Positions 9,466-53,532 of a DNA stretch of 64,000 nt are shown here, one piece after another. This stretch comes from an uncultured Candidatus Saccharibacteria bacterium (GTDB lineage: Bacteria > Patescibacteriota > Saccharimonadia > Saccharimonadales > Saccharimonadaceae). Within the stretch, counting starts at the first letter, position 1. Each line of letters opens with the position of its first letter. The position numbers and the translations under genes are program-made. Under the pieces are notes generated by a model. The model saw only the letters and a program-made list of their open reading frames with translations, searched no databases and was not told the DNA's origin. The stretch lies in assembly GCA_964599775.1 (NCBI GenBank), contig CAZRGZ010000004.1, forward strand, positions 7,373 through 71,372. The letters are read 5' to 3'.

Positions 9466-9584
9466 TGCCGCTCGCTTTCTGCCGCGTGAAATTAGTTATG
9501 CTTATAATGTAATGTAGTTTGGGTGATTTTGCAAATAAAAGTAACCGGATTATCCGGTTACTTTTAGATATGTATTTTTAGTGG

Positions 9585-10028: not shown

Positions 10029-10111
10029 TTCTCTTATGCCCCCTAATTTTATGTTACTTATGTTTATTAATATATCGTCTATTGCCTTAAAACGCAAGCT
10101 TTTTACTACAT

Positions 10112-11297: not shown

Positions 11298-11298
11298 A

Positions 11299-11853: not shown

Positions 11854-11931
11854 GTCTACTATTAGCTTAATGATTTTTAGCTAAAAGCACAAGCGGTAAA
11901 GGCAGCTAGGTTGTGAAACTATGTAGGGGCT

Positions 11932-37263: not shown

Positions 37264-37426
37264 GGCAGTCTCCAACCTTCCTTGGCTTTTTTGACTGCTG
37301 AGGTAGTTTGCGAACAATAAGCGCGCTCTTTAGCGGAAAGAGAAAGGAGTTTTTACTTCTCGCTCGTTGACAACACGATGGACAACCAATTAGAGAAGGG
37401 GTGCTGTCGATGGCAAGCTCTACTTC

Positions 37427-37726
37427 GTGGCCAGTTCGTGCGATAGCGCGTCGTGCACCTCGGACTCGCCCGTGCGGCTTTACGCCGTGTCGATGGATGT
37501 CGGCATGGACTACCCGCGCGGTGCGCTGCAACCAACGCAAACGCCGACGCCAACGTGCCCCTCGCTCTTCTTGGTGGGAGTGCGAGGCTCGGGTGAGTCT
37601 GGCGATAGCGCCGGTGGCCTCGGTACTACCGTGGGCGATGTTCGTGACCGGCTCGCGCAGCAGTTCCCGCATATGAAGACGGCCGCGATCGACTACGCGG
37701 CTGTCGACATCGGGTACGGCAACTAG
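37427..37726 (+). pseudogene. High-GC islet C1: N-terminal fragment of a cutinase-like serine esterase
   Basis: CPSLFLVGVRGSGESGDSAGGLGTTVG...AAIDYAAV matches the start of actinobacterial cutinases (C-P-x-V-x-V-x-x-A-R-G-T/S-x-E). It stops before the GYSQG nucleophile and has no convincing signal peptide. Confidence 0.5.
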
Positions 37727-37796
37727 GGGCATACTCGTTTGCTATTACCGCATTATTATTATAAAATTCGTATGTCCCTAGCTGATAGGAGAAGCA

Positions 37797-38168
37797 ATGG
37801 CAACTGCCGAAGAAATACGCGAAGCAGTAGAGCTGGGAACGCGCCATCGGTTCGTCGAGCCTGACGGCATCATCGTTGCGTATGCGCGCCTCAACGATGG
37901 TGGCGTGCTCGCGTATGTCGGGGTCCCAAACTCTCATGAGCCCGTCGAGGGCCTAGAAGGAGCGAAGACAATGATGGCTGGCTACCGCCAGGTGGTCATC
38001 CTGAACCTCGACTCCTTGGCCGAACTCGAGCAGCCCGTGCTCGCAGAAGCAGTTCGCATAGACTGCAAAGGACCATGCAGTGCAGTGAGGGCGCACAAAA
38101 CACTACACGACTGTCTCTTCAATAGTGTTCGCGCCAAAACACTGCCCAAGCGGCGCCGCAGCTACTAG
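37797..38168 (+). CDS. High-GC islet C2: hypothetical protein
   Basis: 123 aa with G/C-ending codons. An AT-rich TTATAAAAT -10-like element and AGGAGAAGCA SD lie directly upstream. Confidence 0.55.
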   Translation: MATAEEIREAVELGTRHRFVEPDGIIVAYARLNDGGVLAYVGVPNSHEPVEGLEGAKTMMAGYRQVVILNLDSLAELEQPVLAEAVRIDCKGPCSAVRAHKTLHDCLFNSVRAKTLPKRRRSY

Positions 38169-38173
38169 TGGAT

Positions 38174-38207
38174 GTCCGGCCCTGCGGGTGTTTCCGTAGG
38201 GCCGGAC
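38174..38207 (+). terminator. GC-rich hairpin after islet C2
   Basis: GTCCGGCCCT-14 nt-AGGGCCGGAC, 10-bp perfect stem 6 nt after the stop. Confidence 0.7.
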
Positions 38208-38289
38208 GTGAGGTTTACCGAAGTACAAGCCTTGTGAGCGATTGCCTATTTGCTATACAATGCGTAAAAGAGAGCAGATAGGAGGTCAT

Positions 38290-38535
38290 ATGAGTGAAGT
38301 GTTAACCATTCCGTATGGAAAAAGTGAAGAAAACCCAACCGAGAATCGAGAATTTGAAGCGCTCCCTCCATTAAACCTGCAGGAAGTTGGAACGGCCGCA
38401 GTGAAACCACTCGTAGAAATAACAATGGGAAAGCCCAAAGAGAATGGTGATGAAAAAGACCGTCCATTAGGGGATAGAGAAGAAGATGTGGAACCTGATC
38501 CAAGTAAGGAAAGCCCTAACGGAGATAGGAAATAG
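38290..38535 (+). CDS. Small acidic protein, unknown function
   Basis: Start trimmed to MSEVLTIPYG, which has a GGAGG SD. Low-complexity E/K/P-rich. Confidence 0.4.
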   Translation: MSEVLTIPYGKSEENPTENREFEALPPLNLQEVGTAAVKPLVEITMGKPKENGDEKDRPLGDREEDVEPDPSKESPNGDRK

Positions 38536-38546
38536 CTACTAAACTA

Positions 38547-39101
38547 TTAATTTCGTTTAATAAGCAAGTTCCTCATTTTTAAACTATAAAAAGTAAGTGC
38601 AAAGAAGATTATTGGGCCATGGCCTATTATGAATATCTGACTTTGGCGTATACCCATTAGTCGTCTTCTTAAAGTAGGAATTTTTTCATCATATAGGCCA
38701 TATATACAAACAATCCGTTGTTTCTGTTCTGGCTCTAATCGGTTTAATATCATTTCTGCATTTTGCTGTGAAGTAAATAAGTCGTCATTGTTAAGATGTG
38801 GCACAGCCGAGTAGGGTGTGGCGATAGTTGCGATACCCTGAACCTTTTCCGGCCTTTTGTAAAGTGCGGTAATTGCAGCTGTGCCCCCGGCACTCACGCC
38901 AATAACGTAAATCGGGGCAGGTGTATTATCGATTACTGCTAATAACCGCTCGAGTTTTGCTTCGTAGGTTAGTTGATTATTCCAACCGAATACAAAAATC
39001 TCTACATCAAAACCAAGCAAATGCCATAGAAATTTATTCCAAGTATACAGCCAACCCCTATCACCAAGGCCAGGAATAATGATGAGTTTTGGCCGTTTCA
39101 T
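38547..39101 (-). CDS. Alpha/beta hydrolase (lipase/esterase-like)
   Basis: IIIPGLGD and nucleophile elbow GVSAGG. Confidence 0.65.
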   Translation of the reverse strand: MKRPKLIIIPGLGDRGWLYTWNKFLWHLLGFDVEIFVFGWNNQLTYEAKLERLLAVIDNTPAPIYVIGVSAGGTAAITALYKRPEKVQGIATIATPYSAVPHLNNDDLFTSQQNAEMILNRLEPEQKQRIVCIYGLYDEKIPTLRRRLMGIRQSQIFIIGHGPIIFFALTFYSLKMRNLLIKRN

Positions 39102-39168
39102 AGGTTAATAATATCATGTTTATTGATAGATATTGTGTTTTAAGCCAACTTATATTATAGTGACAGCC

Positions 39169-40008
39169 ATGCCAGATGTAGAGCGTAGGCGAGGCACTTT
39201 TAACCAACTAAAGGACACGGGTATTTTTGATGATGTAAAACGTCGGGTGGGTGAAATCGGAGTCGCCGCAGCAGTGCGCGAAGAGCTAGAGAAGGCAGGT
39301 GTCACTATAAATGTTAGAAACGAGTCCGAGGAATGGGAGACCACTTCGCAACCAGCAATTGCTGTTGGTGATCATAGTAAAGGGCTAGAATGCCTCTTGC
39401 TCGTGGGTGCATGTGGTATGACAGGCAGAAACGACCTTGGACTAACGGCAAAACCGTATGCACCCACAGGCCAATTTATTAATGCTATATCTGAGCCGGG
39501 TGAAAATCTTCTGCCTCTTATTCCTACGAGTGTGGCGATTGATCGAAAAGATGGCGACTTTCGTTCAAAAGTACATCGACGTGCCTTCGGGCGGTATTTG
39601 CTTACCAAGGAAGAAACACGAGCTTTCAATAAAGATACCATGCAGCGTGCCGTATCTATGATTGAGGACGAGGGCCGGCTTGTCAGTATTTTCCCTACCG
39701 GTGGCGTATATGATGCTGCAAAGTCGCCATGGCGTAATGGTGTGGGACACATGGCTGCTGATCTCTCAAAAGATACATTCGAGGAAACGGCTGTATTGCC
39801 TTTCAAATTTGAAGGGATTAGACCAAGCCGCATATTATTAGCTATGGTGCGTAGTCGGCTAGGACTGGGTGCGAAACCGCAACATCTTGATATCGTGCTT
39901 GGAAAAGCAGAGACGCTTGGCTCGATATTCCATAGAGATGACGATCGATCACCAGCAAACATCACTCAGGTATTACAGGAAAGATACCAAAAAGAATTTG
40001 CTGAGTAA
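39169..40008 (+). CDS. Acyltransferase-like protein (lysophospholipid acyltransferase fold, tentative)
   Basis: GDHSKGLE (HxxxxD/E-like) and IFPTGG (FPEG-like) motifs. Start trimmed to MPDVERRRG. Confidence 0.4.
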   Translation: MPDVERRRGTFNQLKDTGIFDDVKRRVGEIGVAAAVREELEKAGVTINVRNESEEWETTSQPAIAVGDHSKGLECLLLVGACGMTGRNDLGLTAKPYAPTGQFINAISEPGENLLPLIPTSVAIDRKDGDFRSKVHRRAFGRYLLTKEETRAFNKDTMQRAVSMIEDEGRLVSIFPTGGVYDAAKSPWRNGVGHMAADLSKDTFEETAVLPFKFEGIRPSRILLAMVRSRLGLGAKPQHLDIVLGKAETLGSIFHRDDDRSPANITQVLQERYQKEFAE

Positions 40009-41103
40009 TTATGCTGCTTCTTGTAAATCTTCCGTGTACCAACGCTTGAGCTGGTCAACCATAGATTCATTACGGGTTGCAACAGCAATCTCTGCATTGC
40101 CGCCGGCAATGCCGCTCGAGTTAAAATTAGACGAGCCAAATATACCCATGTCATCGATGATGAGCATTTTAGTATGATTAAGGCGGCGATAGGTTTTACC
40201 ATAAAAACACACGTCTATACCGGCCGCCTCTAACTGCCGCCGGTTCGTTAGTGATTTCATGCGGTCCACAGGGTAGTTATTATATCGTGGTAATATAACA
40301 CGCACATCAAGTTCGGGGTTATTATTCTTAGCTTCAGCCAGCGCTGACCCCATATGCTTCATATCTAAATAAGGTGTCTCTAGCCATATCATATCTCTTG
40401 CTTGCCTAATAGCAGACAAGCTAAAGTCCATAATTTGTTCTTCATGTCCTGAATCGGTAAGTAAATAGGTATCTGCCTCTTGATCGGGTAAAAATTTTGC
40501 CGCACGATTCTCGCCATTCCAGCTATCTTCAAAGTCTTGTTGCACTAGCTCTGAGATTGACCCGCGCATGCGCACCATAAAATCGTTCCACCTAAAACTC
40601 CGAGCTGCAAGATTAACACCCCCTATGTATGTGTAGCCTTCAGGCGATTGCGCGTCGATGGCTACAAGCTTCTTATGATCGCGTGTCGCGATATTAGCAA
40701 GCCCTTCGGCGACGCGCACTCTTTTAAGGTTAGCGCATGCTAGCTGTTCAATCTCGCGGTTCATTTTGAGAGTAGGCCAAAGTCTGCGCGGGTCACTTAC
40801 GAGGTGATCTACCAAAAACCTTACCTCAACCCCGCGAGAAGCCGCATCAAGACTTGCCTCTACTACCTTTTTTGTGACATTGTCAGCTTCGAGAGTATAA
40901 AACTGAAGATCGACTGTTTCTTCTGCTTCTTGAATGCGCTCTACGAGCTCCTCGACAAATAAATGGGCTGTAGGAATAATCTCGAATTGATTCGTTTGCG
41001 AAGCATTGCGAGGCATTTTTGAATCATACGGAAAGAACGAAGGATGAAGAGCCTCATACATATCCGTCGATACTTGCCGCGATGGCCGACTTTGTTCTGA
41101 CAT
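40009..41103 (-). CDS. Phospholipase D family protein, cardiolipin synthase-like
   Basis: Two HKD motifs (DHKKLVAID...GGVNL, NHTKMLIIDDMGIFGSSNFNSSG) and the Cls-like W-N-D...F-E-D-S-W pattern. Confidence 0.8.
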   Translation of the reverse strand: MSEQSRPSRQVSTDMYEALHPSFFPYDSKMPRNASQTNQFEIIPTAHLFVEELVERIQEAEETVDLQFYTLEADNVTKKVVEASLDAASRGVEVRFLVDHLVSDPRRLWPTLKMNREIEQLACANLKRVRVAEGLANIATRDHKKLVAIDAQSPEGYTYIGGVNLAARSFRWNDFMVRMRGSISELVQQDFEDSWNGENRAAKFLPDQEADTYLLTDSGHEEQIMDFSLSAIRQARDMIWLETPYLDMKHMGSALAEAKNNNPELDVRVILPRYNNYPVDRMKSLTNRRQLEAAGIDVCFYGKTYRRLNHTKMLIIDDMGIFGSSNFNSSGIAGGNAEIAVATRNESMVDQLKRWYTEDLQEAA

Positions 41104-41177
41104 TTTTATAACAATATCATGAAATGGTGGATGAGTCTATATTGCTTTCGGATATGTAGTGTGTATTTATGTCAAAT

Positions 41178-42146
41178 TCATTCCGGTAGCTTTGCGCTGA
41201 ATAGATATTCGCCAATCGTATGGTCAAAAATAAATTCTCTATCTAAACTACCAATATGCAAGGAAGTGTGATTCAGCATTTCACGAATATTTTGATGTGT
41301 TACGATAGACTGCCATTGTGTCTTGCCTGCGATGCAAGACGTTGCACGGAACAAAGTATCCATGATTAAGTCACTTCTCGGTAAGGTAAGCATGTCATTA
41401 TTTATATACGATTGTAAGCTTTTAATGAATGCTGGTGTATTGATACTTGTGAGCCCTTTTTCTATGTGATCCGCCATTTCTTCATAAGCAACATCCTTAA
41501 AGGATGAATATTCCATGAGGCGTACTATATATTCTTTTTCGTAAGTATCTTTAAAATCAATTTTGCAAGGGAACTTTTCTTGTATGGTATGTACTATTTG
41601 CATAAATAATGGCTCAATAACGAGGCGGAAGAGTAACGGGGCATGTGTAGTGCTAGTAAGATATGGGCCTTTTAGCCTGGCGAGGATGAAGTTTTTATTT
41701 AAGTTCAGATCACCAATTTCTCTAATGAGTTGATTATCTATTCTCGAATTCCTTGGGGCACTATAAAATGGGAAGTCTTCAAAGTCATTCCAACCTTCGC
41801 GCGCAAGCTCCATGAGCTTTTTCTCGATAGTCTCTAAGTCGTAGATGAAATCCTTACGGCTCTCATTCCTTATTTTATCTATACCACGCTGTATAGAGTT
41901 ATGATTAATATTTACGTCTGTTTTTAGTACATCTCTAACAATATCCTCCTGAAGTGAGCTGAAGTTTATTGTTAATACTATAACTTCGTTATTAAGTTCC
42001 TTTAAGCTATAAAGGTAGTCTATACTCGTGAACAAATCCCTTCGACGCATTTCTGTAATAATTGATTCGAGGAAGATACGACCATATAAGTAAAGAATAT
42101 TTTTACTACATCCTGTTTTTTGTTTAATAAGAATGATTCTTTTCAT
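41178..42146 (-). CDS. AT-rich orphan protein, unknown function
   Basis: 322-aa ORF, visibly more AT-rich than its neighbours, with no motif I recognise. Confidence 0.5.
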   Translation of the reverse strand: MKRIILIKQKTGCSKNILYLYGRIFLESIITEMRRRDLFTSIDYLYSLKELNNEVIVLTINFSSLQEDIVRDVLKTDVNINHNSIQRGIDKIRNESRKDFIYDLETIEKKLMELAREGWNDFEDFPFYSAPRNSRIDNQLIREIGDLNLNKNFILARLKGPYLTSTTHAPLLFRLVIEPLFMQIVHTIQEKFPCKIDFKDTYEKEYIVRLMEYSSFKDVAYEEMADHIEKGLTSINTPAFIKSLQSYINNDMLTLPRSDLIMDTLFRATSCIAGKTQWQSIVTHQNIREMLNHTSLHIGSLDREFIFDHTIGEYLFSAKLPE

Positions 42147-42183
42147 GGGTTTATTCTAGTATAACTTTCGCTTAGGGTAGTGA

Positions 42184-42216
42184 CCCCTGCTTCCGCACTG
42201 GGTACGGAAGCAGGGG
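42184..42216 (-). terminator. GC-rich hairpin after islet D
   Basis: CCCCTGCTTCCG-9 nt-CGGAAGCAGGGG, 12-bp perfect stem. Confidence 0.75.
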
Positions 42217-42240
42217 TGTGAGGTGTCGACGAACTGTCGC

Positions 42241-42450
42241 CTACACGCTCTGGTTGGTGCCGGTCTCAGACGCGGCCTTGTCGGCGCCCCCCTGCTCGAC
42301 AGCGTCGCGCGCGGCGCTTGCCTGGCCGAGGGACTGACCGATCTCCTGGCCCATGTCGGCCAGCTGACCATCATTGAGTATGCCACCCGCCATGCTGGCG
42401 GCGGCACCGGCTCCGAGGAGGGCGTTCTCCGCCGTCTCCTTGATACCCAT
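42241..42450 (-). CDS. High-GC islet D: small Gly/Ala-rich protein
   Basis: MGIKETAENALLGAGAAASMAGG... 69 aa. GGGGGTGAAGG SD. GC-rich codons. Confidence 0.55.
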   Translation of the reverse strand: MGIKETAENALLGAGAAASMAGGILNDGQLADMGQEIGQSLGQASAARDAVEQGGADKAASETGTNQSV

Positions 42451-42564
42451 ATCCTTCACCCCCTTTCGGGAGGACGGTCTCTCCAAAGCCTCATAAGGAA
42501 AGATGGGTGGCTATGGTAGGCTTTCCCATAGAAGCCAAGCATACCGCTGGGTTCGGCTTCAATT

Positions 42565-42589
42565 TATCGAAGGTTGCCTCTATTGTCAA
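42565..42589 (-). promoter_or_regulatory. Promoter-like element of islet D with conserved spacer
   Basis: Minus strand reads TTGACA-ATAGAGGCAACCTTCGA-TAAATT. It shares TTGAC....GAGGCAACCT..GATA with the islet E upstream region. Confidence 0.55.
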
Positions 42590-42628
42590 TTAGTTTATAG
42601 ACATATGTAGTATGTATATAAACAGTTG

Positions 42629-42868
42629 TTACGGAGTAAACATATGAAGAAAACTGCCTATCAATTGCAAGACAGTCTTGCTTAACGAGATAAGGAAACC
42701 ACCGATTATAAGCCCAAGGCTTACAGCCCACAATATATCGGCGGAATTATAAAACGGAATAATAAAGCTAATGAGACAGAAGCCAATAACTATCATTAAT
42801 ACGCCAATAACTATTCGTAGTCGTTGCAGTTTTGTAGTTGCGGTGTTAACTTTCATGGGTAGTATCAT
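42629..42868 (-). CDS. Small two-helix membrane protein
   Basis: AT-rich ORF trimmed to MILPMKVNTATTK. Two hydrophobic helices. Confidence 0.45.
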   Translation of the reverse strand: MILPMKVNTATTKLQRLRIVIGVLMIVIGFCLISFIIPFYNSADILWAVSLGLIIGGFLISLSKTVLQLIGSFLHMFTP

Positions 42869-42942
42869 CTTTACCTTATATTGTACCGAGTCGAGCGCGC
42901 GGTGTAAATAAAGCGCAACACCCCCCACGTACGGTTGTGGAG

Positions 42943-43293
42943 TCAGCACCTCCTACCGTAGAGGCCCTGGGCCTCCCACGGGATAGCGCTGAGGACGAAC
43001 GACACACATCTGTCCTCGTTGGCGTACTGGACGACGAACCATCGGTGAGCCATCATCACCAAGGCGAAGGCCGCCTGTGTAAGGCCCGTGACACCGTAGA
43101 CGTTGCCAGGGATGTTGGGCAGGATGTTGTGGTAAGCCCAGTCACGGGTCTCCTTCTTGCTGAGATGGAGGGCACATCGATGACCCTCGCATCTGATGTC
43201 GGCAGCCTCCGAAGCAGGCGCATGGGTGATGCCAATTCCCGCCAATAGAGCGATCAGAAGCCCGATCGCGGCGAGACGTCGAACGATTGACAC
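42943..43293 (-). CDS. High-GC islet E: small secreted 4-Cys protein
   Basis: Signal peptide MSIVRRLAAIGLLIALLAGIGITHAPASEA. GTG start with a GGAAGGGAAGAG SD. The mature ~86 aa carry 4 Cys. Confidence 0.6.
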   Translation of the reverse strand: MSIVRRLAAIGLLIALLAGIGITHAPASEAADIRCEGHRCALHLSKKETRDWAYHNILPNIPGNVYGVTGLTQAAFALVMMAHRWFVVQYANEDRCVSFVLSAIPWEAQGLYGRRC

Positions 43294-43341
43294 CGCTCTT
43301 CCCTTCCGTGTGGATGGTCTAGGTTAAGACCATCGTCAGGC

Positions 43342-43366
43342 TATCCTAGGTTGCCTCAGACGTCAA
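43342..43366 (-). promoter_or_regulatory. Promoter-like element of islet E with conserved spacer
   Basis: Minus strand reads TTGACG-TCTGAGGCAACCTAGGA-TAGCCT. It has the same GAGGCAACCT 10-mer as upstream of islet D. Confidence 0.5.
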
Positions 43367-43589
43367 ACATCTACTTATACGCTATGTATATGATACACGA
43401 AGCAGCTACCCCATGCGATGTGTATTTTCAAGGGTTTATTTATTTTGGGGGAGGGGATATAATGGTATTATTGGGAGTAGGACTTAAGACTTCCCTAAAC
43501 TAAGTAGTGGCTCAATTACAGTTTAATGTAGTAGAGGATATACGTATGGTTCGTTTAGATGGCGATAGCGATTAATTAGAATAAATTTT

Positions 43590-43608
43590 AACCACCTTCC
43601 CGGTGGTT
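43590..43608 (-). terminator. Hairpin after the HTH-methyltransferase gene
   Basis: AACCACC-TTCCC-GGTGGTT flanked by A/T runs. Confidence 0.6.
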
Positions 43609-44799
43609 TTATTTTAGGTCGGCAATTAAAATCGCTCCTTCATGATTTAATCGTTGCGCGTATAGGAGAGGGTTAAAACCATTTTTGTAGAATAAATCTT
43701 TCGGTGAACCAAAAGTACTATTAAAGTGAGCTCGTGCAGTTAGAACTGCTTCATCTTTATTAAGATTAACTATCCAGGTACCTTTTGATAGCTTGAATTC
43801 AATCGTTAGTGCATATTTAGGACGTATTCGTGCATATCGAATTCTTGCTTCCTCATCAAATCCAACTTCTACATTGTACAGGGATTCTTTAATTCCCATC
43901 ATATCGAGAACAAGCTTACACTGTTTTTGATAACTATATAGGAAACTCACCTGATTCTTTACGGCTGGTGCATCTAACCTGAAACTACAGATATAAAGAT
44001 CTTCCGGATTCATACTTCTACTTATCGTTCTTAGAATATCTTCAGGATGTCTGAAATTAGAAATATAGCCACCGAGTGAGAGAACGATGTTAATTGTTTT
44101 TTGATGATAATCTTGTTCATCGATAGGCTCTGCGATGATATCACTGAATAATTCATGACTAATATCTTTTATGTGGGTTTCTACTTTAACCTCATTATTA
44201 AACCACTGACTGATATTTCGTGTAGTGATATCGATCATAGCTTGACTAATGTCTATTCCAATGTAGCGGTTAAGCTTTCCCGCCTTATGAAGTTGTTCGA
44301 TTAGTGGTCGTGCTGCTGCACCGGTTCCTACACCTAGATCAACTATATTGATGGCATCATATTGTTCAATCGCATGGGTGATATAACTGCTAACTGCTTT
44401 GAGCAGTGTTTCAGGGTCCATATGTCTTTCCGGCTGAGTTCGAAAAACCTCCCACATTTTTGCGCCTTCACCAAAATATGAGTATTGGAGTGGTAATTCA
44501 CGATATGAATTAAGGCTTTTAATGATATCGTGAATTTGTGTTTCGTTATATTGCTGGTAAAACTCTGGCGAAGGAGTCAGAACTTTACGGCTTTGCTGGT
44601 TTAGGTATTTGCGGCGTTCACTCACAATACTTTCAAGTCGTTGTTGATTAAATCGAGACTTGATAATGTAGAATTCGTCCTTATCTTGATCAAGCTCTAA
44701 ATCAAGCTTCCCCTCCCGAGTTTGCTTAATCCAATTCGTCACCGTCCTACGGCTGACACCGTATAGATCTGCTAGTTCCTGGCTTTTGTAATAATGCAT
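43609..44799 (-). CDS. HTH domain fused to an EgtD-like (Methyltransf_33) SAM-dependent methyltransferase
   Basis: N-terminus QELADLYGVSRRTVTNWIKQ (MerR/excisionase-type HTH). Followed by YFGEGAKMWEVF, IVDLGVGTGAAARPLIEQL, YIGIDISQAMIDIT and the extended C-terminal domain typical of histidine-N-alpha-methyltransferase-like enzymes. Confidence 0.65.
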   Translation of the reverse strand: MHYYKSQELADLYGVSRRTVTNWIKQTREGKLDLELDQDKDEFYIIKSRFNQQRLESIVSERRKYLNQQSRKVLTPSPEFYQQYNETQIHDIIKSLNSYRELPLQYSYFGEGAKMWEVFRTQPERHMDPETLLKAVSSYITHAIEQYDAINIVDLGVGTGAAARPLIEQLHKAGKLNRYIGIDISQAMIDITTRNISQWFNNEVKVETHIKDISHELFSDIIAEPIDEQDYHQKTINIVLSLGGYISNFRHPEDILRTISRSMNPEDLYICSFRLDAPAVKNQVSFLYSYQKQCKLVLDMMGIKESLYNVEVGFDEEARIRYARIRPKYALTIEFKLSKGTWIVNLNKDEAVLTARAHFNSTFGSPKDLFYKNGFNPLLYAQRLNHEGAILIADLK

Positions 44800-44841
44800 A
44801 TCAGTTAATTATATAAAATCGCTAAAAAATGAAAAATAGTG

Positions 44842-44871
44842 TTGACATGTTTCCCCAGTTTGGGTTATGAT
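44842..44871 (+). promoter_or_regulatory. Sigma-70-like promoter of the 45048..46051 operon
   Basis: TTGACA, 18-nt spacer, TATGAT, about 175 nt upstream of the first ATG. The leader contains three hairpins. Confidence 0.6.
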
Positions 44872-45047
44872 CCGGGCAGGTAATGTTGCCCGCGTATTTA
44901 GAAACATATTTACTGTACCACGTATCTATGTTTCTCGCAAATTCTTGCGCTTTTACTTACTTTACTTGGGTAACCTACTAACATTAGATAAGCGGGGATA
45001 TATGTTAGGGCTTCCTAGCGGCAACCCCAGGAGGGAATTATAGAAGA

Positions 45048-45347
45048 ATGCAGTATGCATTGAACGCAAAAATAAATAATCCGACTGCTAAAAAAACCAA
45101 CGTGATAGATACCTTTACACTTGGCCCTGGCCAAAGCACAAAGGTGCCGCTTGGTGTGTTCGAGGCGCATATGCCTCAGCCGGTATTTGAGATTGAATAC
45201 GAGCCTAAGGCAGAGGCTGGCGATGGCGTCGCTGCTGCACTGGAGCGGGTAGATAAGGGCGATGAATATTGGCTGGTGTACTTTTTCCAGAATTTTAGCG
45301 ATGACACCTTTCATATTAGTGTGAAAGAAAGGTATACCGAAATTTAA
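45048..45347 (+). CDS. Hypothetical protein (operon gene 1)
   Basis: 99 aa, AGGAGGGA SD, no recognised family. Confidence 0.55.
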   Translation: MQYALNAKINNPTAKKTNVIDTFTLGPGQSTKVPLGVFEAHMPQPVFEIEYEPKAEAGDGVAAALERVDKGDEYWLVYFFQNFSDDTFHISVKERYTEI

Positions 45348-45384
45348 AGGTTTCCCGTATAATAGGTAACATGAGGTATAAACG

Positions 45385-45624
45385 ATGAAGGACGATTTGG
45401 CAGTAACGTGTATCATCTGCCAGCAGAATGTGCCTTTTACTGACGCCACTGCTGGCGCCTTGTATGCTGACGGCCGACAAGCATTTGCCTGCCTAGAACA
45501 CACCTGGAACAAAGCGTCCTGGCTACTTGCCTGGGCGCGTTTTTCTATAGAGCAGCAGGAATACAGCATGCAAGAAAAGGACAAGGAAGTATATAGGAAG
45601 AACGAACGTGTCGTATCTTGTTGA
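45385..45624 (+). CDS. Hypothetical Cys-containing protein (operon gene 2)
   Basis: 79 aa, GAGGT SD, CIIC...ACLEH possibly metal-binding. Confidence 0.5.
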   Translation: MKDDLAVTCIICQQNVPFTDATAGALYADGRQAFACLEHTWNKASWLLAWARFSIEQQEYSMQEKDKEVYRKNERVVSC

Positions 45625-46051
45625 AGAGCGTTTATTACCCACCAAGGCAGCAGTATCGGCGGATATTGCCCGCCATTTACAGCTGCGCCAACAAGTGGGC
45701 CGAGCCGTCGTGGTTGCGCCACGTTCCAGTATAGTGCTATCGACGGTACGCCGCCAGTGGATGAAGCTCGTGCAAGCCCTGCAGCGCGAAAATGCGCGTA
45801 CTCTAGATGGGGCCTTAAGGGCTGAGCTTTCCCGGCAGCTGTCCACTATGGAAAGCCTTCGTTTTGTATCGCAGCCACCTGAGCGTCAGCCCGATGCTGA
45901 TATTTACTTTCTGGAAGAAGAAGATTTCACGGTATTACCCGAAAACTGCCGCACAGTGTATTTTTGTACACAAATAAACCAGCTTGAAAAGCTACAGCGA
46001 TATATCACACAAGATTGTGTGGTGGTGAAGTATATTACCAAGAGCGATTAA
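45608..46051 (+). CDS. Hypothetical protein (operon gene 3)
   Basis: 147 aa. GTG start overlapping gene 2 by 17 nt, with GGAAG upstream. Confidence 0.5.
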   Translation: MSYLVEERLLPTKAAVSADIARHLQLRQQVGRAVVVAPRSSIVLSTVRRQWMKLVQALQRENARTLDGALRAELSRQLSTMESLRFVSQPPERQPDADIYFLEEEDFTVLPENCRTVYFCTQINQLEKLQRYITQDCVVVKYITKSD

Positions 46052-46054
46052 AAG

Positions 46055-46426
46055 CTATTCTTTTGCCAGCACTTCTTTGACTCGTTCTACCACTTGGCGT
46101 GGCGTGTAGTCTGCTTTTACGATGTAGCTGTCGATGCCGAGCGACTTTAAATCATCGGGAGCTTCTTCGGCGCCAAGATTAGTAAGTACAATCACTGGGA
46201 TGTCCTTGCCCCACTCCTGTTTACGAATTTCACGTAGCGCCTCGGCGCCATCCATGATGGGCATATGTAAATCCAGCAGAATAAGGTCGGGCTTGATATC
46301 TTCAACCATCGCCACCCCAAGTTTACCGTTCTCTGCCCACTGAACGTCGTACCCCTCGGCGGTTAGCTTCATAATGTACATTTGGCTAATAACTTGGTCG
46401 TCTTCGATGATTGCTATTCTTAACAT
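46055..46426 (-). CDS. Stand-alone response-regulator receiver protein (CheY-like)
   Basis: IIEDD, phospho-acceptor region LILLDLHMPIMDG, VIVLTNLG. No output domain. Confidence 0.9.
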   Translation of the reverse strand: MLRIAIIEDDQVISQMYIMKLTAEGYDVQWAENGKLGVAMVEDIKPDLILLDLHMPIMDGAEALREIRKQEWGKDIPVIVLTNLGAEEAPDDLKSLGIDSYIVKADYTPRQVVERVKEVLAKE

Positions 46427-46580
46427 ATTTTTATGATACCCCAGCCTTAGGCTTTAGTGCAATGTCATTATACTACTTACTATACATTTTACATTGCCAA
46501 TACTATATACACATGGTATGGTCATTTTCTTTTTTTGAAATAATTATATAATAAGTATAGAGCGGTAGAAGGAGATTATC

Positions 46581-47399
46581 ATGCTGAATTTTGAGGGTCT
46601 GCCAAAATCAAGAGCGGATTTTGAAAAGATAACTTCACGGCGTTCGCGTTATGAAGAGAAGTATGGTGACATGCTTGCTAACCGTACGATTGAAGTACAG
46701 CGCACCAGACCCAGTGGAGAACAGTGGGATGGGATAGGCAAATTAAGAGGCCGCGTGTATGTCCATGAGAATGGTTACCTTCCGGAATCGGTGTTGGATA
46801 ATAAGGGGAGAGAATATGACGAATATGACGAATATGACGATACTGTGCATATTTGTGCCTCCAATGAGCAAGGTGATGTAGTTGGCTACGTAAGGATCTT
46901 GACTAAAGGTGATGGAACCCGGCTGTTGCCAGCAGAAAAGGTGTTTGAGCAGCAGATTGATGAAATGAACATACCTATCTTTGATAACGTCACTGAGGTA
47001 TCACGTTTGATTTCTGCAGGGGAAGGGCTTGAGTCCCCCTTGATTACCGCTTCTCTCATTCGTGCAGCGGCACATGAACTCGGGCGAAGAGATAAAAACT
47101 ATTCGGCAACAACTCTAGCGGTCGTTGAGCCATTTTTAGAACGATACCTAAAAGATATAATTGGTGTTCCGGTAAGCGAGCTGATTCCAGTTACGCCCAC
47201 TCCTGAATATGGAGGATCAAATAATAAGCTCGTCGCTATTTGGCCAACCGGCATTGTAGAGCGAGCTTCAGAGCTCGACGAAGAGGGGAGAAGGTTGGTT
47301 GTTTTGCCGGATAGGATGGGTCCATTTTTCGATTCTATGCGAGAAAGCCATGGCTTAGGGAAAGTTGCATTAAATTTATCCAATGATTTAAAAAGGTAA
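46581..47399 (+). CDS. GNAT-fold acyltransferase resembling autoinducer / N-acyl amino acid synthases (LuxI/FeeM-like)
   Basis: LRGRVYVHENGYLPE, acidic EYDEYDEYDD, VVGYVRIL, EVSRLIS. GGAGATTATC SD. Confidence 0.5.
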   Translation: MLNFEGLPKSRADFEKITSRRSRYEEKYGDMLANRTIEVQRTRPSGEQWDGIGKLRGRVYVHENGYLPESVLDNKGREYDEYDEYDDTVHICASNEQGDVVGYVRILTKGDGTRLLPAEKVFEQQIDEMNIPIFDNVTEVSRLISAGEGLESPLITASLIRAAAHELGRRDKNYSATTLAVVEPFLERYLKDIIGVPVSELIPVTPTPEYGGSNNKLVAIWPTGIVERASELDEEGRRLVVLPDRMGPFFDSMRESHGLGKVALNLSNDLKR

Positions 47400-48352
47400 T
47401 GAATATGAGTGAAAAATCTAAGTATCCCATGTTGAACCCGGAGAGATTTGATAGAAATCTTGGTTTTATGACAGAGAGAGACCGCCATACACTTAACAAT
47501 TCGACTGTGGCAATTGCTGGTACGGGGGGCGATGGGGGTGAACTCGCGGTGAGACTAGCGCGAATGGGGGTAAGGAAATTTCACTTAGCTGATCCAGAAT
47601 CATTTGATATTGAAAATTTGAATCGACAAGAAGGCTCGAATTATGAAACTGTTGGTCGCAATAAGGCAGAAGTGGTCGCAGAGATTATTCAAAAAATTCA
47701 TCCTGACGCTGAGATTAAATTATATAGAGATGGCGTCACTGAGGAGAACGTGGAAGAATTTATTCACGGGACAGATGTAGTGGTTGACGAGAGTGAATAT
47801 ACTCGTATTGAAATAGGTGTTATGATTGCGCGTGAAGCTCGCAAGGAGAACCTACCTGTGTTTATGGGTTTGAATGTAGGTCATGGTGGACAAGTAACCG
47901 TTTATCCACCGTGGGGGAAAACTTTTGAAGAACATTTTGGTTTAGACCCCAACGCGCCTTTAGACGAAATTGCAAAAGCTGATGTTCCTATTGATAAATG
48001 GCTACATCGGCTACCTAAAGATACGGATATGGATGTTTTGAATGAGGTTGCAGAAGGTAATATATCAGCGCCCTCTGTAGTGACAGGAGTAGGGATGGCC
48101 GCAAATATGATGACTGCCTATGTGTCGGATTTTCTCATTGCTAAAGGTATAGAGGATCCGGTTGAAAAGCAGAAAAGATTGAAGGGGCTATTAAGCATTG
48201 ATGCGAACTTAGGCCGTTCTCGCTTTATGGATGCTCACGGAGAAAGTGTAGCAATAAGAAATAAAAAACTAAGCTTGGGCTTTTCAGCTCTTCGTGCAAC
48301 TGCTAGAAATAAGTTAGGTTTAACACCCAAAACCCATTACACAAAAAGTTAG
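47399..48352 (+). CDS. ThiF/MoeB/E1-like adenylyltransferase
   Basis: Nucleotide-binding AIAGTGGDGGELAVRLARMGV, DIENLNRQ, DVVVDESE. The ATG overlaps the upstream stop (TAATG). Confidence 0.75.
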   Translation: MNMSEKSKYPMLNPERFDRNLGFMTERDRHTLNNSTVAIAGTGGDGGELAVRLARMGVRKFHLADPESFDIENLNRQEGSNYETVGRNKAEVVAEIIQKIHPDAEIKLYRDGVTEENVEEFIHGTDVVVDESEYTRIEIGVMIAREARKENLPVFMGLNVGHGGQVTVYPPWGKTFEEHFGLDPNAPLDEIAKADVPIDKWLHRLPKDTDMDVLNEVAEGNISAPSVVTGVGMAANMMTAYVSDFLIAKGIEDPVEKQKRLKGLLSIDANLGRSRFMDAHGESVAIRNKKLSLGFSALRATARNKLGLTPKTHYTKS

Positions 48353-48391
48353 CATATGCTTTTTAGATTTTAACGTATATAATAACAGTAA

Positions 48392-50614
48392 ATGTCTGTT
48401 GAGTTGTTCATCATCAATCTTGTCAGTGCGCTCGTTATACTTTTCTTTATAGCGCTTGTTGCCCGAACAGGACTAGCAAAACCTCTCAATCGTAATTTTC
48501 TCTACTTTTTAATTGCACTTCTTGGCTGGGTTGTACTTAACTATTTTAGCAATCAAATTTTCCTTGATGAATGGCTTTTATTAATCAACCGGTTACTCTT
48601 TGTTGTTTCTGCGGTAACTATGGGATTAATGCTGCGTTTCTGTCTTTTCATCAGAGGCACACAGCAATTTTTTTCAAGAGATCTAGTATTGTTAAGTCTA
48701 ATTCTATTAGCAGTTGCCATATCCTTGACGCCGTTAGTCGTAGAAGATGTGAGCGGTAGAGGGGATGTCATAGGGGTTGTATTTGGATGGGCTGCTCCTG
48801 TCTACTTTGCAATACTTGGTATATTTGCAATTTGGATTATTACACGGTTATATATTGATGCAATTAAGGCGAGCGGTCTTGTGCGAGCACGGGCGCGGGC
48901 ATTATCTATTGCCTTTGGTCTAGGGCTTGGGCTACTTGCTATAACGAATGTTTTGCTGCCTACAATGTTTGACCTTTTCTACTTAAGTGCAATGGGCTCT
49001 CTTTTTATTGTTGTGATGCTTTCTGGAGTAGGATATTCTATTGTGAAGCATCATTTTCTTGATATACGATTATTTATTGCTCGTTCATTAGCCTACATAT
49101 TTACTATTGTTGTTCTGGCACTTTTATATAGTGTCTTAACTTTTGGTTTACTGACGCAAATCACTGGAGAAGCTCTTTCGTTAGCTCATGAAATTATTTA
49201 TTTCCTAATAGCATTAGTGTTAGGGCTTACGTTCGCGCCTATGAAGCGCTTTTTTGATAAACTTAGTGATAGGATTTTCTATAAGGATCACTACGAAATA
49301 CAAGAAGTCTTAAATTTCTTTAGTGAACTAATGCTTGGCGAGATACGACTTGACAAGCTCTTAAACGGGAGCCTAAAAATTCTTGGTGACTCACTGAAAT
49401 TTGATTTTGGTTATATATGTGTAGTTGATGAGCAAAATCGAATTGTTAAGCAAGAAAGCACAGATGATAAAGAAGTCTCAATTGGTGAGCTAGCTGCTAG
49501 TCTCGGGCCTCGTTACCAAGGCAGCATAGTAGTTAACAATTCTTTCAACGGAGTTAGCCAAGTGCCTAAAAGATTGCAAAAATTTTTGAGCGCAAACGGT
49601 ATAGAGGTAGTTCTCAATTTAAGAACTCCCGCAAATAGTTCAATTGGATATGTACTGCTTGGTGCGAAGAGGTCTGGTAGCATTTATACAGATCAGGATA
49701 TAAGACTTCTTAATCTAATTGCGAGTGCTCTAGGTGTTGCTATTGAAAGTAGTCTCCGTTTCGAAGAAATCCAAAACTTCAACGAAACGCTACAAGACAA
49801 GGTTGACGCAGCGACGCGGCGGCTGCGCAAGGCGAATGAGCGTTTGCGGCAGCTTGATGCTACGAAGGATGAGTTTGTGAGCATGGCATCGCACCAGCTA
49901 CGCACGCCACTGACGAGCGTGAAGGGGTATTTAAGTATGGTGTTAGAGGGTGACGCAGGTAAGTTAAATCCCACGCAGGAGAAGCTTTTAAAAGAGGCAT
50001 TTACGAGTTCGGAACGCATGGTGCGATTAATCGGCGACTTTTTGAATGTATCACGCCTGAGAACGGGTAAATTCGTGATAGAGCGCAAACCAGTAAATAT
50101 GGCTGAACTTGTAAAAGGTGAAGTGACACAGCTAAAGCCAACGGCGGAAGCACGAGAGCTAAGCTTGACCTACGAACAACCGAAGGATTTCCCTGAAATG
50201 GATATCGATAAAAGCAAAATCCAGCAGGTGGTGATGAACTTTCTCGATAATGCAATTTTCTACTCGAAACCAGGTGGGAAGATAACTGTCGAGCTGTATC
50301 AGAAACAAAATGATATTATTTTTAAGGTAAAAGACCAAGGTATTGGGGTGCCCGACGACGAGAAGAAACGCTTGTTTACCAAGTTTTACCGTGCCAGTAA
50401 TGCCCGTAAGCAGCGACCAGATGGTACTGGTATTGGGCTATTCATGGCGCAAAAAGTAATTATTGCCCATGGTGGGGCGGTGATCTTTGAGTCAAAAGAA
50501 GGCGAGGGGAGTACCTTTGGTTTCCGGTTGCCCTTGAAGCTATCTGCCGCCGATAAAGAACGGGCAGAAAGCGTGACGAATGAAATGAACCTGCTCGAAG
50601 GTATAACAGAATAG
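48392..50614 (+). CDS. Membrane sensor histidine kinase with GAF-like domain
   Basis: About 8 N-terminal TM helices and a GAF-like middle domain. H-box FVSMASHQLRTPLTSV, N-box NFLDNAIFYS, G1 DQGIGV, G2 GTGIGL. Confidence 0.9.
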   Translation: MSVELFIINLVSALVILFFIALVARTGLAKPLNRNFLYFLIALLGWVVLNYFSNQIFLDEWLLLINRLLFVVSAVTMGLMLRFCLFIRGTQQFFSRDLVLLSLILLAVAISLTPLVVEDVSGRGDVIGVVFGWAAPVYFAILGIFAIWIITRLYIDAIKASGLVRARARALSIAFGLGLGLLAITNVLLPTMFDLFYLSAMGSLFIVVMLSGVGYSIVKHHFLDIRLFIARSLAYIFTIVVLALLYSVLTFGLLTQITGEALSLAHEIIYFLIALVLGLTFAPMKRFFDKLSDRIFYKDHYEIQEVLNFFSELMLGEIRLDKLLNGSLKILGDSLKFDFGYICVVDEQNRIVKQESTDDKEVSIGELAASLGPRYQGSIVVNNSFNGVSQVPKRLQKFLSANGIEVVLNLRTPANSSIGYVLLGAKRSGSIYTDQDIRLLNLIASALGVAIESSLRFEEIQNFNETLQDKVDAATRRLRKANERLRQLDATKDEFVSMASHQLRTPLTSVKGYLSMVLEGDAGKLNPTQEKLLKEAFTSSERMVRLIGDFLNVSRLRTGKFVIERKPVNMAELVKGEVTQLKPTAEARELSLTYEQPKDFPEMDIDKSKIQQVVMNFLDNAIFYSKPGGKITVELYQKQNDIIFKVKDQGIGVPDDEKKRLFTKFYRASNARKQRPDGTGIGLFMAQKVIIAHGGAVIFESKEGEGSTFGFRLPLKLSAADKERAESVTNEMNLLEGITE

Positions 50615-51283: not shown

Positions 51284-52927
51284 TTACCGGTTGAACATTT
51301 TACCAAGTAGTTCACGGCGGCTCATGAAGTAGTAGTAACTTGCAGCACCGATAGAACCGATTCCAGCGAATGCGCCGATGAGGCTACCCGCACCGGTCTC
51401 AGGGATCACGGTAGGGGTTTCTTCACCTTTACCACCTTTTGGCTCTTCGGGAGTTTTTGGCTCCTCAGGAGTTACAGGGGTTTCGCCACAGTCTTTGCTG
51501 TCAGCTGGCAGCTCAGGGTTTTCTGGGCAAGGCTCGTAGCAGTCTTCGCTATCTTTTGGTAGCTCTGGGTTGTAAGGACATTTTGGCTCTTCACAATCCG
51601 GGTGGTCGATAGGCAACTCTGGATTGTAAGGGCAAGGTTCCTTAGGTTCCTCACAGTCTGGGTGGCCAACAGGCAACTCAGGGTTGTAAGGGCAGGGCTC
51701 TTCTTTGTCAGGAGAAGCCGTAACGCTTACTTCACAGTTCACACTTTTTACTGCACCGTCAACGTTGAATTTCAAGGTTGCGGTAGTAGTGTAGTCACCA
51801 GCTGCGGCGTAAGTGTGGGTCACGTTACCAAGCTCGCTTGGGGTAACACCATTCTTGCTGTTGCCGTCGCCGAAGTTAAAGTCTACACTGGTGAGTTCTG
51901 CACCGTTTTCAGCGGTGTACTCAAGGTTGTATTTGTAGGTGCGGTCAGTGACTTCACCGATTAGCTGTGCAGCCAGGGCGTCACAGTCATAAACTGGTGG
52001 TTGTGGTTCCTTACAGTCAGGGTGATCCTTAGGCAAGTCTGGATTGTAAGGGCAAGGTTCTGGTGCTTTACAATCTGGGTGGCCTTTTGGCAACTTAGGG
52101 TTGTAAGGACACGGTTCTGCCTTTACGTTGATTTTCGTCACACAGTGGCCTTCACTAGTTGTTTTAGTCTTGCCATCGTGTGTTTTAAAGGTTACTGCCG
52201 CTTTAATAGTGTATTCACCAGGAGTGGTTTGAGTGTAGCGGTAGTTCTTGCTGTTGCTGGTTTTAGAAGCAACTTTTTTGCCGCTAGCATCGTAGACGTT
52301 AAAGGTAACGCTCTTGAAAGATGCACGGTGCTGGCTGGTTGCAACAGACAGGTCGTAACGTGTACGGTCAACTTTCTGTGCGCTTAAGCCTTCACATTTG
52401 TAGGCAACTTTTGGCTTGGGCTTTGCCTTTACGGGGTTACCACAAGATGTAATAACGGCAGATTTAAACTCGCCATGTTGGTCGAAGAAGATGAAAGCTT
52501 TGATAGAGTTACTGCCGAAGCTAACACTCGTTTTACGCTCGTAGAACGTCTTACCACCAATAGTTACTTTGCTACTGCCAGGCATATAGTGTCGGCCAAC
52601 GCTTTTCGCGCCAGTGGCAACTACTTTACCGTCGACAACGACGTCACCGTTCTTTCGTACTTCACCAGCTTTGGCGCTAGAGAAGTTAGTAGGGACGTTG
52701 TAGTGCTTGAAGACAGCTGGCAAGTCACCTGTTTTATTCTCTTTATACTTTTTGGACAGTTCGCTTGAGCTACATGCCCCATTCTTTATAATGGCATTGT
52801 TGTCATTGTCGCGAGCACAGTTGCCAAAGCTCGTTGCCTCTGCGGGGGATGCAATTGCAAAGTAGGCGAAAATTCCACCGACTATAATTGCCAACCCAGC
52901 CACAAGGGCTAGTAATTTCTTCCTCAT
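51284..52927 (-). CDS. Surface protein with PKD-like domain, CPYNPxLPxxHPDC tandem repeats and IPETG sorting signal
   Basis: Start trimmed to MRKKLLALVAGLAII with a GAGGAGG SD. PKD hallmark FNFGDGNS...THTYAAAGDY. Seven Cys-Pro repeats. IPETG (51392-51406) is followed by a hydrophobic segment and a basic tail. Confidence 0.8.
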   Translation of the reverse strand: MRKKLLALVAGLAIIVGGIFAYFAIASPAEATSFGNCARDNDNNAIIKNGACSSSELSKKYKENKTGDLPAVFKHYNVPTNFSSAKAGEVRKNGDVVVDGKVVATGAKSVGRHYMPGSSKVTIGGKTFYERKTSVSFGSNSIKAFIFFDQHGEFKSAVITSCGNPVKAKPKPKVAYKCEGLSAQKVDRTRYDLSVATSQHRASFKSVTFNVYDASGKKVASKTSNSKNYRYTQTTPGEYTIKAAVTFKTHDGKTKTTSEGHCVTKINVKAEPCPYNPKLPKGHPDCKAPEPCPYNPDLPKDHPDCKEPQPPVYDCDALAAQLIGEVTDRTYKYNLEYTAENGAELTSVDFNFGDGNSKNGVTPSELGNVTHTYAAAGDYTTTATLKFNVDGAVKSVNCEVSVTASPDKEEPCPYNPELPVGHPDCEEPKEPCPYNPELPIDHPDCEEPKCPYNPELPKDSEDCYEPCPENPELPADSKDCGETPVTPEEPKTPEEPKGGKGEETPTVIPETGAGSLIGAFAGIGSIGAASYYYFMSRRELLGKMFNR

Positions 52928-53124
52928 TGGTACACTCCTCCTCTGGAATTCAATAAGTGTTGATATTATTAAAGCACAAAAGCTTAAAAAAATCAATACC
53001 TTTTAGTACTTTTTTGCATAAATTACGAAAAACTTATGCTTTTTGGTACCTTTTCCGATTGATTGTCCACCTATCGCATTATATAATGAAGACAACATAA
53101 AAAGGCATCAGGATCTGTTGTTAA

Positions 53125-53532
53125 ATGATCATTTCGCGAAATAAACAACAATATGGCTTCACAATAATAGAGTTATTGGTCATTATTGTGGTCATTGGGG
53201 TCCTGGCAGGTCTGGTGGTGGCTGGGTATACGACTATACAGCGGAGTACCGTGAATGCTTCTATAGAGTCTGACTTGCGTTCCATGGCAGACCTACAAGA
53301 GTTATACCGGCTTGATAACCCATCTGCAGCTGGTTTTGTGTATCCAAACGGCCCACAAGATAGTGAATTTGCGCCCAGCGAGGGCAATACTATTACGGTC
53401 ACTTTGCGTAACGGCGGCTATTGCATAAAAGGATATAACAGCGCTGGTTCATTTAGTAACCCTAGTAGTGCCATGACGTACGATTCTTTGGCTGGAGGGT
53501 TAAACAAAACGGGTAATGCCTGTGAGCCCTAG
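53125..53532 (+). CDS. Type IV pilin-like protein
   Basis: QQYGFTIIELLVIIVVIGVLAGLVVAGY prepilin motif. Confidence 0.85.
   Translation: MIISRNKQQYGFTIIELLVIIVVIGVLAGLVVAGYTTIQRSTVNASIESDLRSMADLQELYRLDNPSAAGFVYPNGPQDSEFAPSEGNTITVTLRNGGYCIKGYNSAGSFSNPSSAMTYDSLAGGLNKTGNACEP

Follow-up and report, generated by a model that had tools for sequence, protein, structure and literature searches.

Bacterial oxazolones are made by enzyme pairs in which an N-acyltransferase produces an N-acyl amino acid and a ThiF-like enzyme cyclises it with ATP. In Pseudoalteromonas rubra, OxzA (an N-acyltransferase) and OxzB (a ThiF-nitroreductase) make tyrazolones, and in Mycobacterium tuberculosis TyzA, TyzB (ThiF) and TyzC (oxidase), as well as TrzA and TrzS, make acyl-oxazolones; OxzA, TyzA and TrzA supply the N-acyl amino acids, and the ThiF-like OxzB, TyzB and TrzS carry out the ATP-dependent cyclisation. 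[quoted passage not shown] Here we analyse a locus in 64,000 nucleotides of an uncultured Candidatus Saccharibacteria bacterium (contig CAZRGZ010000004.1, positions 7,373 to 71,372; hereafter the window), where genes for a GNAT-fold acyltransferase, a ThiF/E1-like enzyme and a histidine kinase follow one another and a receiver-only response regulator is encoded divergently. An earlier, sequence-only reading of this DNA was aware of no system on record in which an acyltransferase of this type is paired with an E1-like enzyme; Oxz, Tyz and Trz are such systems, and the claim of novelty falls. Its suggestion that the signal might be an acylated, adenylate-activated amino acid agrees with the known chemistry of the enzyme pairing. 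What is new is the lack of a desaturase at the loci examined, the fusion of acyltransferase and ThiF in many relatives, and the link to a dedicated two-component system.

We consider it on balance probable that these genes, four or five in number, form a module for small-molecule signalling, in which an N-acyl amino acid is made, activated or cyclised by ThiF at the expense of ATP, and the product sensed by the kinase. The module is widespread in Patescibacteria, where it occurs in Saccharimonadia-type and other Candidate Phyla Radiation (CPR) lineages. Four lines of evidence are established, namely the folds of the enzymes, their intact catalytic motifs, the fusion between them and the conserved synteny.

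The acyltransferase had been placed by the sequence-only reading in the autoinducer-synthase/FeeM branch of the GNAT fold, and profile and structure comparisons both return LuxI and FeeM. Three Pfam models score above their cut-offs: FeeM (PF21926; 38.5 bits, cut-off 27, residues 52-183), Acetyltransf_5 (34.3, cut-off 22.4) and Autoind_synth (PF00765; 29.7, cut-off 24). Compared with the PDB, a profile of the family matches solely acyl-homoserine lactone (AHL) synthases, with BjaI first (1.3e-7), then RpaI, LasI, EsaI and TofI. The first Foldseek matches of the AlphaFold2 model (predicted local distance difference test, pLDDT, 89.5) are TofI, LasI, RpaI, FeeM (2G0B) and EsaI, with E-values of 3e-9 to 3e-6 and target-normalised TM-scores of 0.62-0.76; as modelled, the protein is a LuxI/FeeM variant of the GNAT fold. 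Conserved alignment columns give R56, Y60, E78, D80, D83, R105, E139, S141 and R142 as invariant in the family, which we take to be the LuxI-family signature positions, and the N-terminal LuxI signature (R, F/Y, W, ExDxxD, R, ExSR) is kept except for a Tyr where Trp is expected. The motifs noted earlier, LRGRVYVHENGYLPE, EYDEYDEYDD, VVGYVRIL and EVSRLIS, are all present, and there are extra elements at the N-terminus (11-32) and the C-terminus (222-263). In a search of 1.84 billion proteins, 563 cluster representatives match the family profile at E <= 1e-10. The predicted activity is probably that of an N-acyl amino acid synthase. No LuxR-type gene was found at any locus examined; a histidine kinase is the partner instead.

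A scan of the genome collection with the peptide pattern G[RE]EYD[EK][YF]D returned two CPR-type loci, together with proteobacterial acyltransferases without ThiF. These proteobacterial loci (L018-L027; Mesorhizobium, Shinella, Tepidicaulis, Parvularculaceae, Tenderia, Panacagrimonas) have no neighbouring ThiF gene, and their acyltransferases probably belong to the LuxI type or to the exosortase-associated (TIGR03694-like) enzymes.

The ThiF/E1-like protein, in which the motifs AIAGTGGDGGELAVRLARMGV and ENLNRQ were both found as claimed, matches Pfam PF00899 with 116 bits. Its best NCBIfam model is the uncharacterised PRK08223 (173 bits, cut-off 266), which is also the best model common to all GNAT-linked ThiFs examined, and it reaches no curated ThiF, MoeB, TcdA or MoeZ cut-off (ThiF at best 86.5 against 159, MoeB 64.5 against 449, TcdA 52 against 304). 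R19, the GxGxxG glycines (G41/G43/G46), D65, N73, R76 and K89 do not vary across 35 homologues, and D126 and D130 hardly vary; these conserved residues predict an intact ATP/Mg adenylation site, in which D130 is presumably the equivalent of TrzS D217 and MoeB D130. There is no cysteine in the whole protein, and likewise no CxxC, so that neither a zinc site nor thioester or persulfide chemistry is available to it. The AlphaFold2 model (pLDDT 90.7) and structure comparison reveal neither an MccB/PaaA-type N-terminal peptide-binding (clamp) domain nor a recognition-element (RRE) domain of the kind associated with ribosomally synthesised and post-translationally modified peptides (RiPPs). The sequence-only reading would have given way had this been the ordinary thiamine/molybdopterin enzyme; such an identity, or that of TcdA, is ruled out by the lack of cysteine, the scores below cut-off and the GNAT fusion of many relatives, and no ThiS/MoaD-like gene lies at any locus examined.

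By sequence and fold, the nearest solved relatives are AclA, TcdA and ThiF. AclA of Tenacibaculum discolor (9EGB/9EGC) is a small ThiF-like enzyme with a 2025 structure 'in complex with substrate', and has N-terminal R-[FY]-x-RN and N-[VL]-G-x-GG motifs in common with the GNAT-linked ThiFs; its function may directly inform on the chemistry of this clade, and a literature search found no function for AclA (9EGB) or PRK08223. TcdA (CsdL), the t6A cyclodehydratase, is likewise small and ThiF-like and catalyses ATP-dependent cyclodehydration of an N-acylated amino-acid moiety, but it differs from the window protein in having tRNA as its substrate and in the TcdA model, whose cut-off the window protein does not reach.

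The acyltransferase and ThiF are functionally linked, and a Rosetta-stone fusion is the strongest evidence for this. Searches with ThiF gave ~40 clusters of ~540-555-residue proteins, one of them annotated as Candidatus Saccharimonadales, with the acyltransferase domains N-terminal and ThiF C-terminal; the two halves abut with no linker. Split gene pairs recur at 30-50% identity, and the order is reversed (ThiF, then FeeM) in contigs L014 and L030. Conservation of the pair elsewhere, on which the sequence-only reading depended, is thus borne out, since the pair is kept with a kinase and a receiver-only regulator in distant relatives and also in a second gene order. Rhodococcus carries a bare, overlapping two-gene FeeM-ThiF operon on mobile elements, and a Chitinophagales contig has a FeeM-ThiF pair beside a nitroreductase-family gene, with a ThiF 41% identical to that of the window. 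Four longer proteins with a C-terminal GNAT domain (P0163, P0165, P0218, P0225) were rejected as fusions because no ThiF is fused to them.

The Rhodococcus operons (R. erythropolis/R. qingshengii; L031/L032 5348-6843, L028 2846-5729) have no oxidase and no kinase, and lie among genes for a resolvase, a ParA-like protein, Lsr2, GmrSD and a restriction enzyme. The L028 pair is interrupted by an IS256 element.

Within the window, all four claimed open reading frames are present where they had been placed, and their length, significant family matches and conserved orthologues put them far beyond chance. The TAATG overlap between the acyltransferase stop and the ThiF start is confirmed in the sequence; however, Shine-Dalgarno spacing is better for the third ThiF codon, an ATG at 47405, from which the gene is also called in sister contigs, so that the arrangement may be a 5-nt gap rather than an overlap. 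The genes are tightly coupled under either start. The kinase gene follows closely, as reported, with 39 nt between the ThiF stop and its own start. No terminator-like sites were seen between the three plus-strand genes in a terminator scan that was itself not above chance, and a promoter scan of 46427-46580 gave one sigma-70-like match, 46494-46522(+), with fewer sites than in shuffled sequence, and hence no promoter evidence.

The kinase and regulator have the features of a two-component system, as predicted from an H-box, an HATPase_c domain and a receiver phospho-acceptor Asp. The regulator, confirmed as a divergently transcribed protein with Response_reg as its sole domain (Pfam E 1.6e-21, 77 bits, residues 4-116) and no output domain, retains Asp9/Asp10, Asp52 (in LLDLHMP), Thr82 and Lys104. 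The kinase scores 66.8 bits against HisKA and 92.9 bits against HATPase_c, its H-box SHQLRTPL lies at residue 500, and a hydropathy scan gives about 8-9 transmembrane helices, in line with the roughly eight claimed. Its GAF-like domain is below cut-off in the window protein (GAF_2 23 bits, GAF_3 19 bits) but clear in orthologues, of which that of L011 matches both GAF and GAF_2; L014 and L030 have shorter kinases that lack the domain. HisKA_7TM is similarly below cut-off in the window kinase (17.6 bits) but clear in the L004, L009, L014 and L030 orthologues, and the transmembrane region is homologous to that of the L014 kinase (E 2.9e-9).

Eleven CPR-type loci were examined, the neighbourhoods of relatives being covered within ±6 kb. 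Seven-transmembrane (7TM) kinases and receiver-only regulators lie beside the acyltransferase-ThiF pair in the window and in L001, L002, L004, L009, L011, L013, L014, L016, L029 and L030, an association that holds across two gene orders and differing flanking genes. The Saccharimonadia-type layout is FolD, regulator(-), acyltransferase-ThiF (split or fused), kinase and small membrane protein(-), with kinases of about 710-740 residues that have a polytopic membrane sensor and, where detected, GAF; regulator orthologues of 123-126 residues occupy the same position in L001, L002, L009, L011, L013 and L029. L004 keeps acyltransferase, ThiF and kinase at 31% acyltransferase identity. In L014 and L030 (type 2) the flanking genes are others and the order is ThiF, FeeM, 7TM kinase and receiver(s), the receivers again being without output domains. 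The small tail-to-tail neighbour of the kinase has a basic N-terminus (KKKRxKxYxG) and one C-terminal transmembrane helix; it has homologues at the same position in L001, L002, L009, L011, L013 and L029 (alignment mean column identity 49%) and no family match, in PADLOC either, and is a possible accessory or fifth member of the module.

Sequence identities to the window fall into two groups. The regulator (56-68%) and kinase core (57-64%) hardly change, and the acyltransferase (27-49%), ThiF (34-76%), kinase transmembrane region (24-59%) and GAF domain (20-48%) fall together. This parallel divergence would fit a co-diversifying pair of signal and receptor; it is a weak argument for one, since kinase cores as a rule evolve more slowly than sensor domains. 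L029, a commonly sampled Saccharibacteria genome, has an extra S-adenosylmethionine (SAM)-dependent methyltransferase gene and a second, paralogous 741-residue kinase gene after the first (9179-12416); these extras may reflect product tailoring and receptor duplication.

The module shares with OxzAB, TyzACB and TrzAS the adjoining of an N-acyl amino acid synthase gene and a ThiF-like gene, the acyltransferase usually lying upstream in an overlapping operon, and the ThiF-like domain of the window likewise has an apparently intact ATP/Mg site. It differs in its host phylum, Patescibacteria, and in its fusion partners: in the known oxazolone systems ThiF is fused to an oxidase, whereas in the CPR module it is fused or coupled to the acyltransferase. 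Only the CPR module, moreover, has a dedicated sensor kinase and regulator. A neighbour domain search found no nitroreductase-type oxidase, fused or adjacent, at the eleven CPR-type loci, and tblastn with the nitroreductase-family protein of L015 found nothing in the 64-kb window or at these loci. In the described systems, disabling the oxidase or limiting O2 lets the cyclised, non-oxidised intermediate build up.

From homology and the fusion, we infer N-acyl amino acid synthesis followed by ATP-dependent activation or cyclisation. The acyltransferase would N-acylate an amino acid, most likely from acyl-coenzyme A (acyl-CoA) or acyl carrier protein (acyl-ACP), giving a product with a free carboxylate. 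The cysteine-free ThiF would then adenylate this carboxylate with ATP, after which intramolecular cyclisation would follow or the activated acyl group would be passed to a nucleophile. Where the amino acid has no side-chain nucleophile, the expected product is a saturated 5(4H)-oxazolone (azlactone), as with OxzB, TyzB and TrzS; with one, it would be a lactone or lactam. As there is no nitroreductase-type desaturase, we propose that the pathway stops at this non-oxidised product, which would be labile and lipid-like. The co-transcribed kinase most likely detects the product in or at the membrane, to judge from gene context; conserved synteny and parallel divergence suggest that its ligand is probably the product of the enzymes. 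The kinase would in turn phosphorylate the divergently encoded regulator which, lacking an output domain, must act via protein-protein contacts and not DNA binding, presumably on a non-transcriptional target.

Several points weigh against this scheme. The product is a prediction, and the sequence does not decide between a free amino acid and SAM as acceptor, nor does it identify the acyl donor. The family model of TrzS (Rv1355c) matches the window ThiF weakly (70 bits, cut-off 476), and a search from the Rhodococcus ThiF homologue returned no mycobacterial TyzB. The desaturase search took in the 64-kb window and ±6 kb of relatives, not whole genomes. A saturated azlactone hydrolyses easily; if nothing downstream trapped it, ThiF would spend ATP in a futile cycle, and the true end product may therefore be another. 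In the described compounds, the oxazolone ring opens in the presence of acid or alcohols, and tyrazolones are hydrolysed within hours at pH 8. Finally, the bare Rhodococcus pairs show that a dedicated kinase is not required for the enzymes to work.

The foremost alternative, which we regard as unlikely though by no means negligible, is that the enzymes are the output of the system: the kinase would sense a host or environmental cue and control the production or use of an effector derived from an N-acyl amino acid, for instance a lipid of the membrane, an antibiotic or a compound that modulates the host. A receiver-only regulator could bind an enzyme directly, the Saccharimonadia kinase has a cytoplasmic GAF domain, and FeeM-ThiF pairs occur without a kinase in Rhodococcus and Chitinophagales; the physiological role of oxazolones is, besides, unknown. 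Nonetheless, a polytopic kinase beside a synthase is the layout typical of self-sensing. In Vibrio, LuxM/LuxN and CqsA/CqsS each place a synthase gene beside a polytopic histidine kinase that binds a lipophilic autoinducer, with no LuxR-type receptor. These systems differ from the module in their unrelated synthase families and chemistry, and their kinases feed the LuxU/LuxO phosphorelay to transcription, whereas the partner in the module is a receiver-only protein. That synthase and sensor domains diversify together, and that the L029 cluster contains a methyltransferase and two paralogous kinases, a pattern resembling diversification of signal and receptor, also speak for self-sensing.

The order of the two reactions could also be the reverse, ThiF adenylating a fatty or amino acid and so providing the acyltransferase with an acyl-adenylate donor in place of acyl-ACP or acyl-CoA. 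De novo fatty-acid synthesis is reportedly missing in Saccharibacteria, which would suit such an arrangement, as would the fusion of the two domains and the type-2 order of ThiF then FeeM. We think it improbable: in every characterised system with an N-acyl amino acid synthase and a ThiF, the ThiF follows the acyltransferase and acts on the N-acyl amino acid, and the acyltransferases use acyl-CoA; the best sequence matches of our acyltransferase are the CoA-dependent AHL synthases BjaI and RpaI; and the review knows of no E1-like enzyme that activates a fatty acid.

Previous work took the CPR acyltransferases to be AHL synthases (PMC7567580, 2020). Its Table S4 lists LuxI homologues beside sensor kinases in 18 CPR genomes, Saccharibacteria included, and assigns, in Candidatus Saccharibacteria RIFCSPHIGHO2_12_FULL_47_16, gene number 598 to the LuxI homologue and numbers 600 and 602 to kinases. 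This numbering matches the L029 layout (acyltransferase, ThiF, kinase, methyltransferase, kinase), and the reported pairs are almost certainly the same loci as our module. ThiF is not mentioned in the text or supplements of that study (0 occurrences), and in the searchable paper library we found none tying ThiF to the Patescibacteria module. A classical LuxI-type AHL synthase with an unconventional kinase receptor, ThiF being a bystander, draws on the above-cut-off Autoind_synth score, the nearly complete set of LuxI signature residues (R, aromatic, ExDxxD, R, ExSR) and the AHL synthases among the top fold matches. It is nevertheless very improbable, since dozens of clusters have ThiF as an in-frame fusion with the acyltransferase and every locus keeps the two in synteny, the FeeM score exceeds that of Autoind_synth, and the LuxI reaction, in which lactonisation is driven by loss of methylthioadenosine, needs no carboxylate activation; with ThiF as partner, the predicted chemistry differs from the AHL reading.

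Sulfur-carrier (ThiS/MoaD) adenylation of the ordinary kind, or the modifying of a RiPP peptide or a ubiquitin-like (Ubl) protein, has in its favour generic E1-domain matches of the ThiF fold, including the Cap2 E1 region of CBASS, and is scarcely credible given the absence of cysteine and CxxC, ThiF, MoeB and TcdA scores below cut-off, the lack of any ThiS/MoaD/Ubl, E2 or JAB gene or conserved precursor peptide at any locus and of a peptide-clamp or RRE domain, and an acyltransferase without a PADLOC match. RiPP and Ubl modification were rejected for want of a precursor, Ubl, E2 or JAB gene at these loci and of an RRE domain. Scans with PADLOC and PHROGs also led us to reject a known defence system; PADLOC gave no match for the acyltransferase, and ThiF was matched solely by the generic E1 part of CBASS E1-E2 models, at most 60 bits.

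The features of the locus are collected in Table 1.

Table 1. Coordinates of the module and its subregions in the window, with the basis of each assignment.
Feature	Position	Strand	Basis
Receiver-only response regulator, 123 aa	46055..46426	-	Response_reg the sole domain; divergent
Divergent intergenic region between regulator and acyltransferase, 154 nt, AT-rich	46427..46580	.	Sequence reading
LuxI/FeeM-fold N-acyltransferase (GNAT), 272 aa, probable N-acyl amino acid synthase	46581..47399	+	Pfam, profile, AlphaFold2/Foldseek
ThiF/E1-like adenylating enzyme, 317 aa (315 aa if start = 47405)	47399..48352	+	Pfam ThiF, AlphaFold2
Histidine kinase, whole open reading frame, 740 aa	48392..50614	+	HisKA + HATPase_c
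Kinase polytopic membrane sensor region, aa 1-290, HisKA_7TM type	48392..49261	+	Hydropathy, orthologues
Kinase cytoplasmic GAF-like domain, aa 320-452	49349..49747	+	Sub-cut-off GAF_2/GAF_3, L011 orthologue
Kinase transmitter core: HisKA aa 492-559, HATPase_c aa 606-716	49865..50614	+	Pfam
Small tail-anchored membrane protein, 73 aa	50616..50837	-	Same-position homologues

In relatives FolD directly abuts the regulator gene, whereas in the window FolD lies at 36436-37263, indicating that about 8.8 kb (37300-46050) is inserted between them. This stretch has a lower G+C content (0.41-0.46) and encodes a PLD-like protein (40009-41103), a protein with helix-turn-helix and Methyltransf_33 (EgtD/EasF-like) domains (43609-44799) and several open reading frames without a family match, including three small ones at 45048-46051. 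On the other side of the module, a 570-residue PKD-domain surface protein (51284-52996(-)) contains a Cys-Pro motif, CPYNP[ED]LPxxHPDC, at least six times, and at its end an LPXTG-like sorting signal, IPETG, precedes a hydrophobic tail; PKD or CLIPPER-domain proteins likewise lie downstream of the module, at the same position, in relatives. A type IV pilin-like protein with an N-terminal FTIIELLVIIVVIGVLAG segment is encoded at 53125-53532(+), about 2.5 kb from the module, and may deserve attention, given that the receiver-only regulator must have a target outside transcription.

CPR bacteria (Patescibacteria) have minimal genomes and live as obligate epibionts, and the module bears on how their cells communicate, of which next to nothing is known. 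It is conceivable, though we hold it to be doubtful, that Patescibacteria have a quorum- or contact-sensing class of their own, with an ATP-cyclised lipoamino-acid autoinducer (a saturated azlactone, or a lactone or lactam made without SAM) from the fused or coupled enzymes, the adjacent 7TM kinase as its cognate receptor and a receiver-only output to targets other than transcription, for instance pili or host attachment. The ThiF partner shifts the prediction for the 'LuxI homologues' of CPR genomes from AHLs to ATP-activated N-acyl amino acid derivatives. The fused enzyme, being free of a desaturase, is a compact candidate biocatalyst for ATP-driven N-acyl amino acid activation. The sensor kinase wired to the core enzymes is a candidate receptor for oxazolones and N-acyl dehydro-amino acids, whose role is unresolved in M. 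tuberculosis as elsewhere, and, should that sensing class exist, no receptor would have been assigned before it to the oxazolone/N-acyl amino acid metabolite family.

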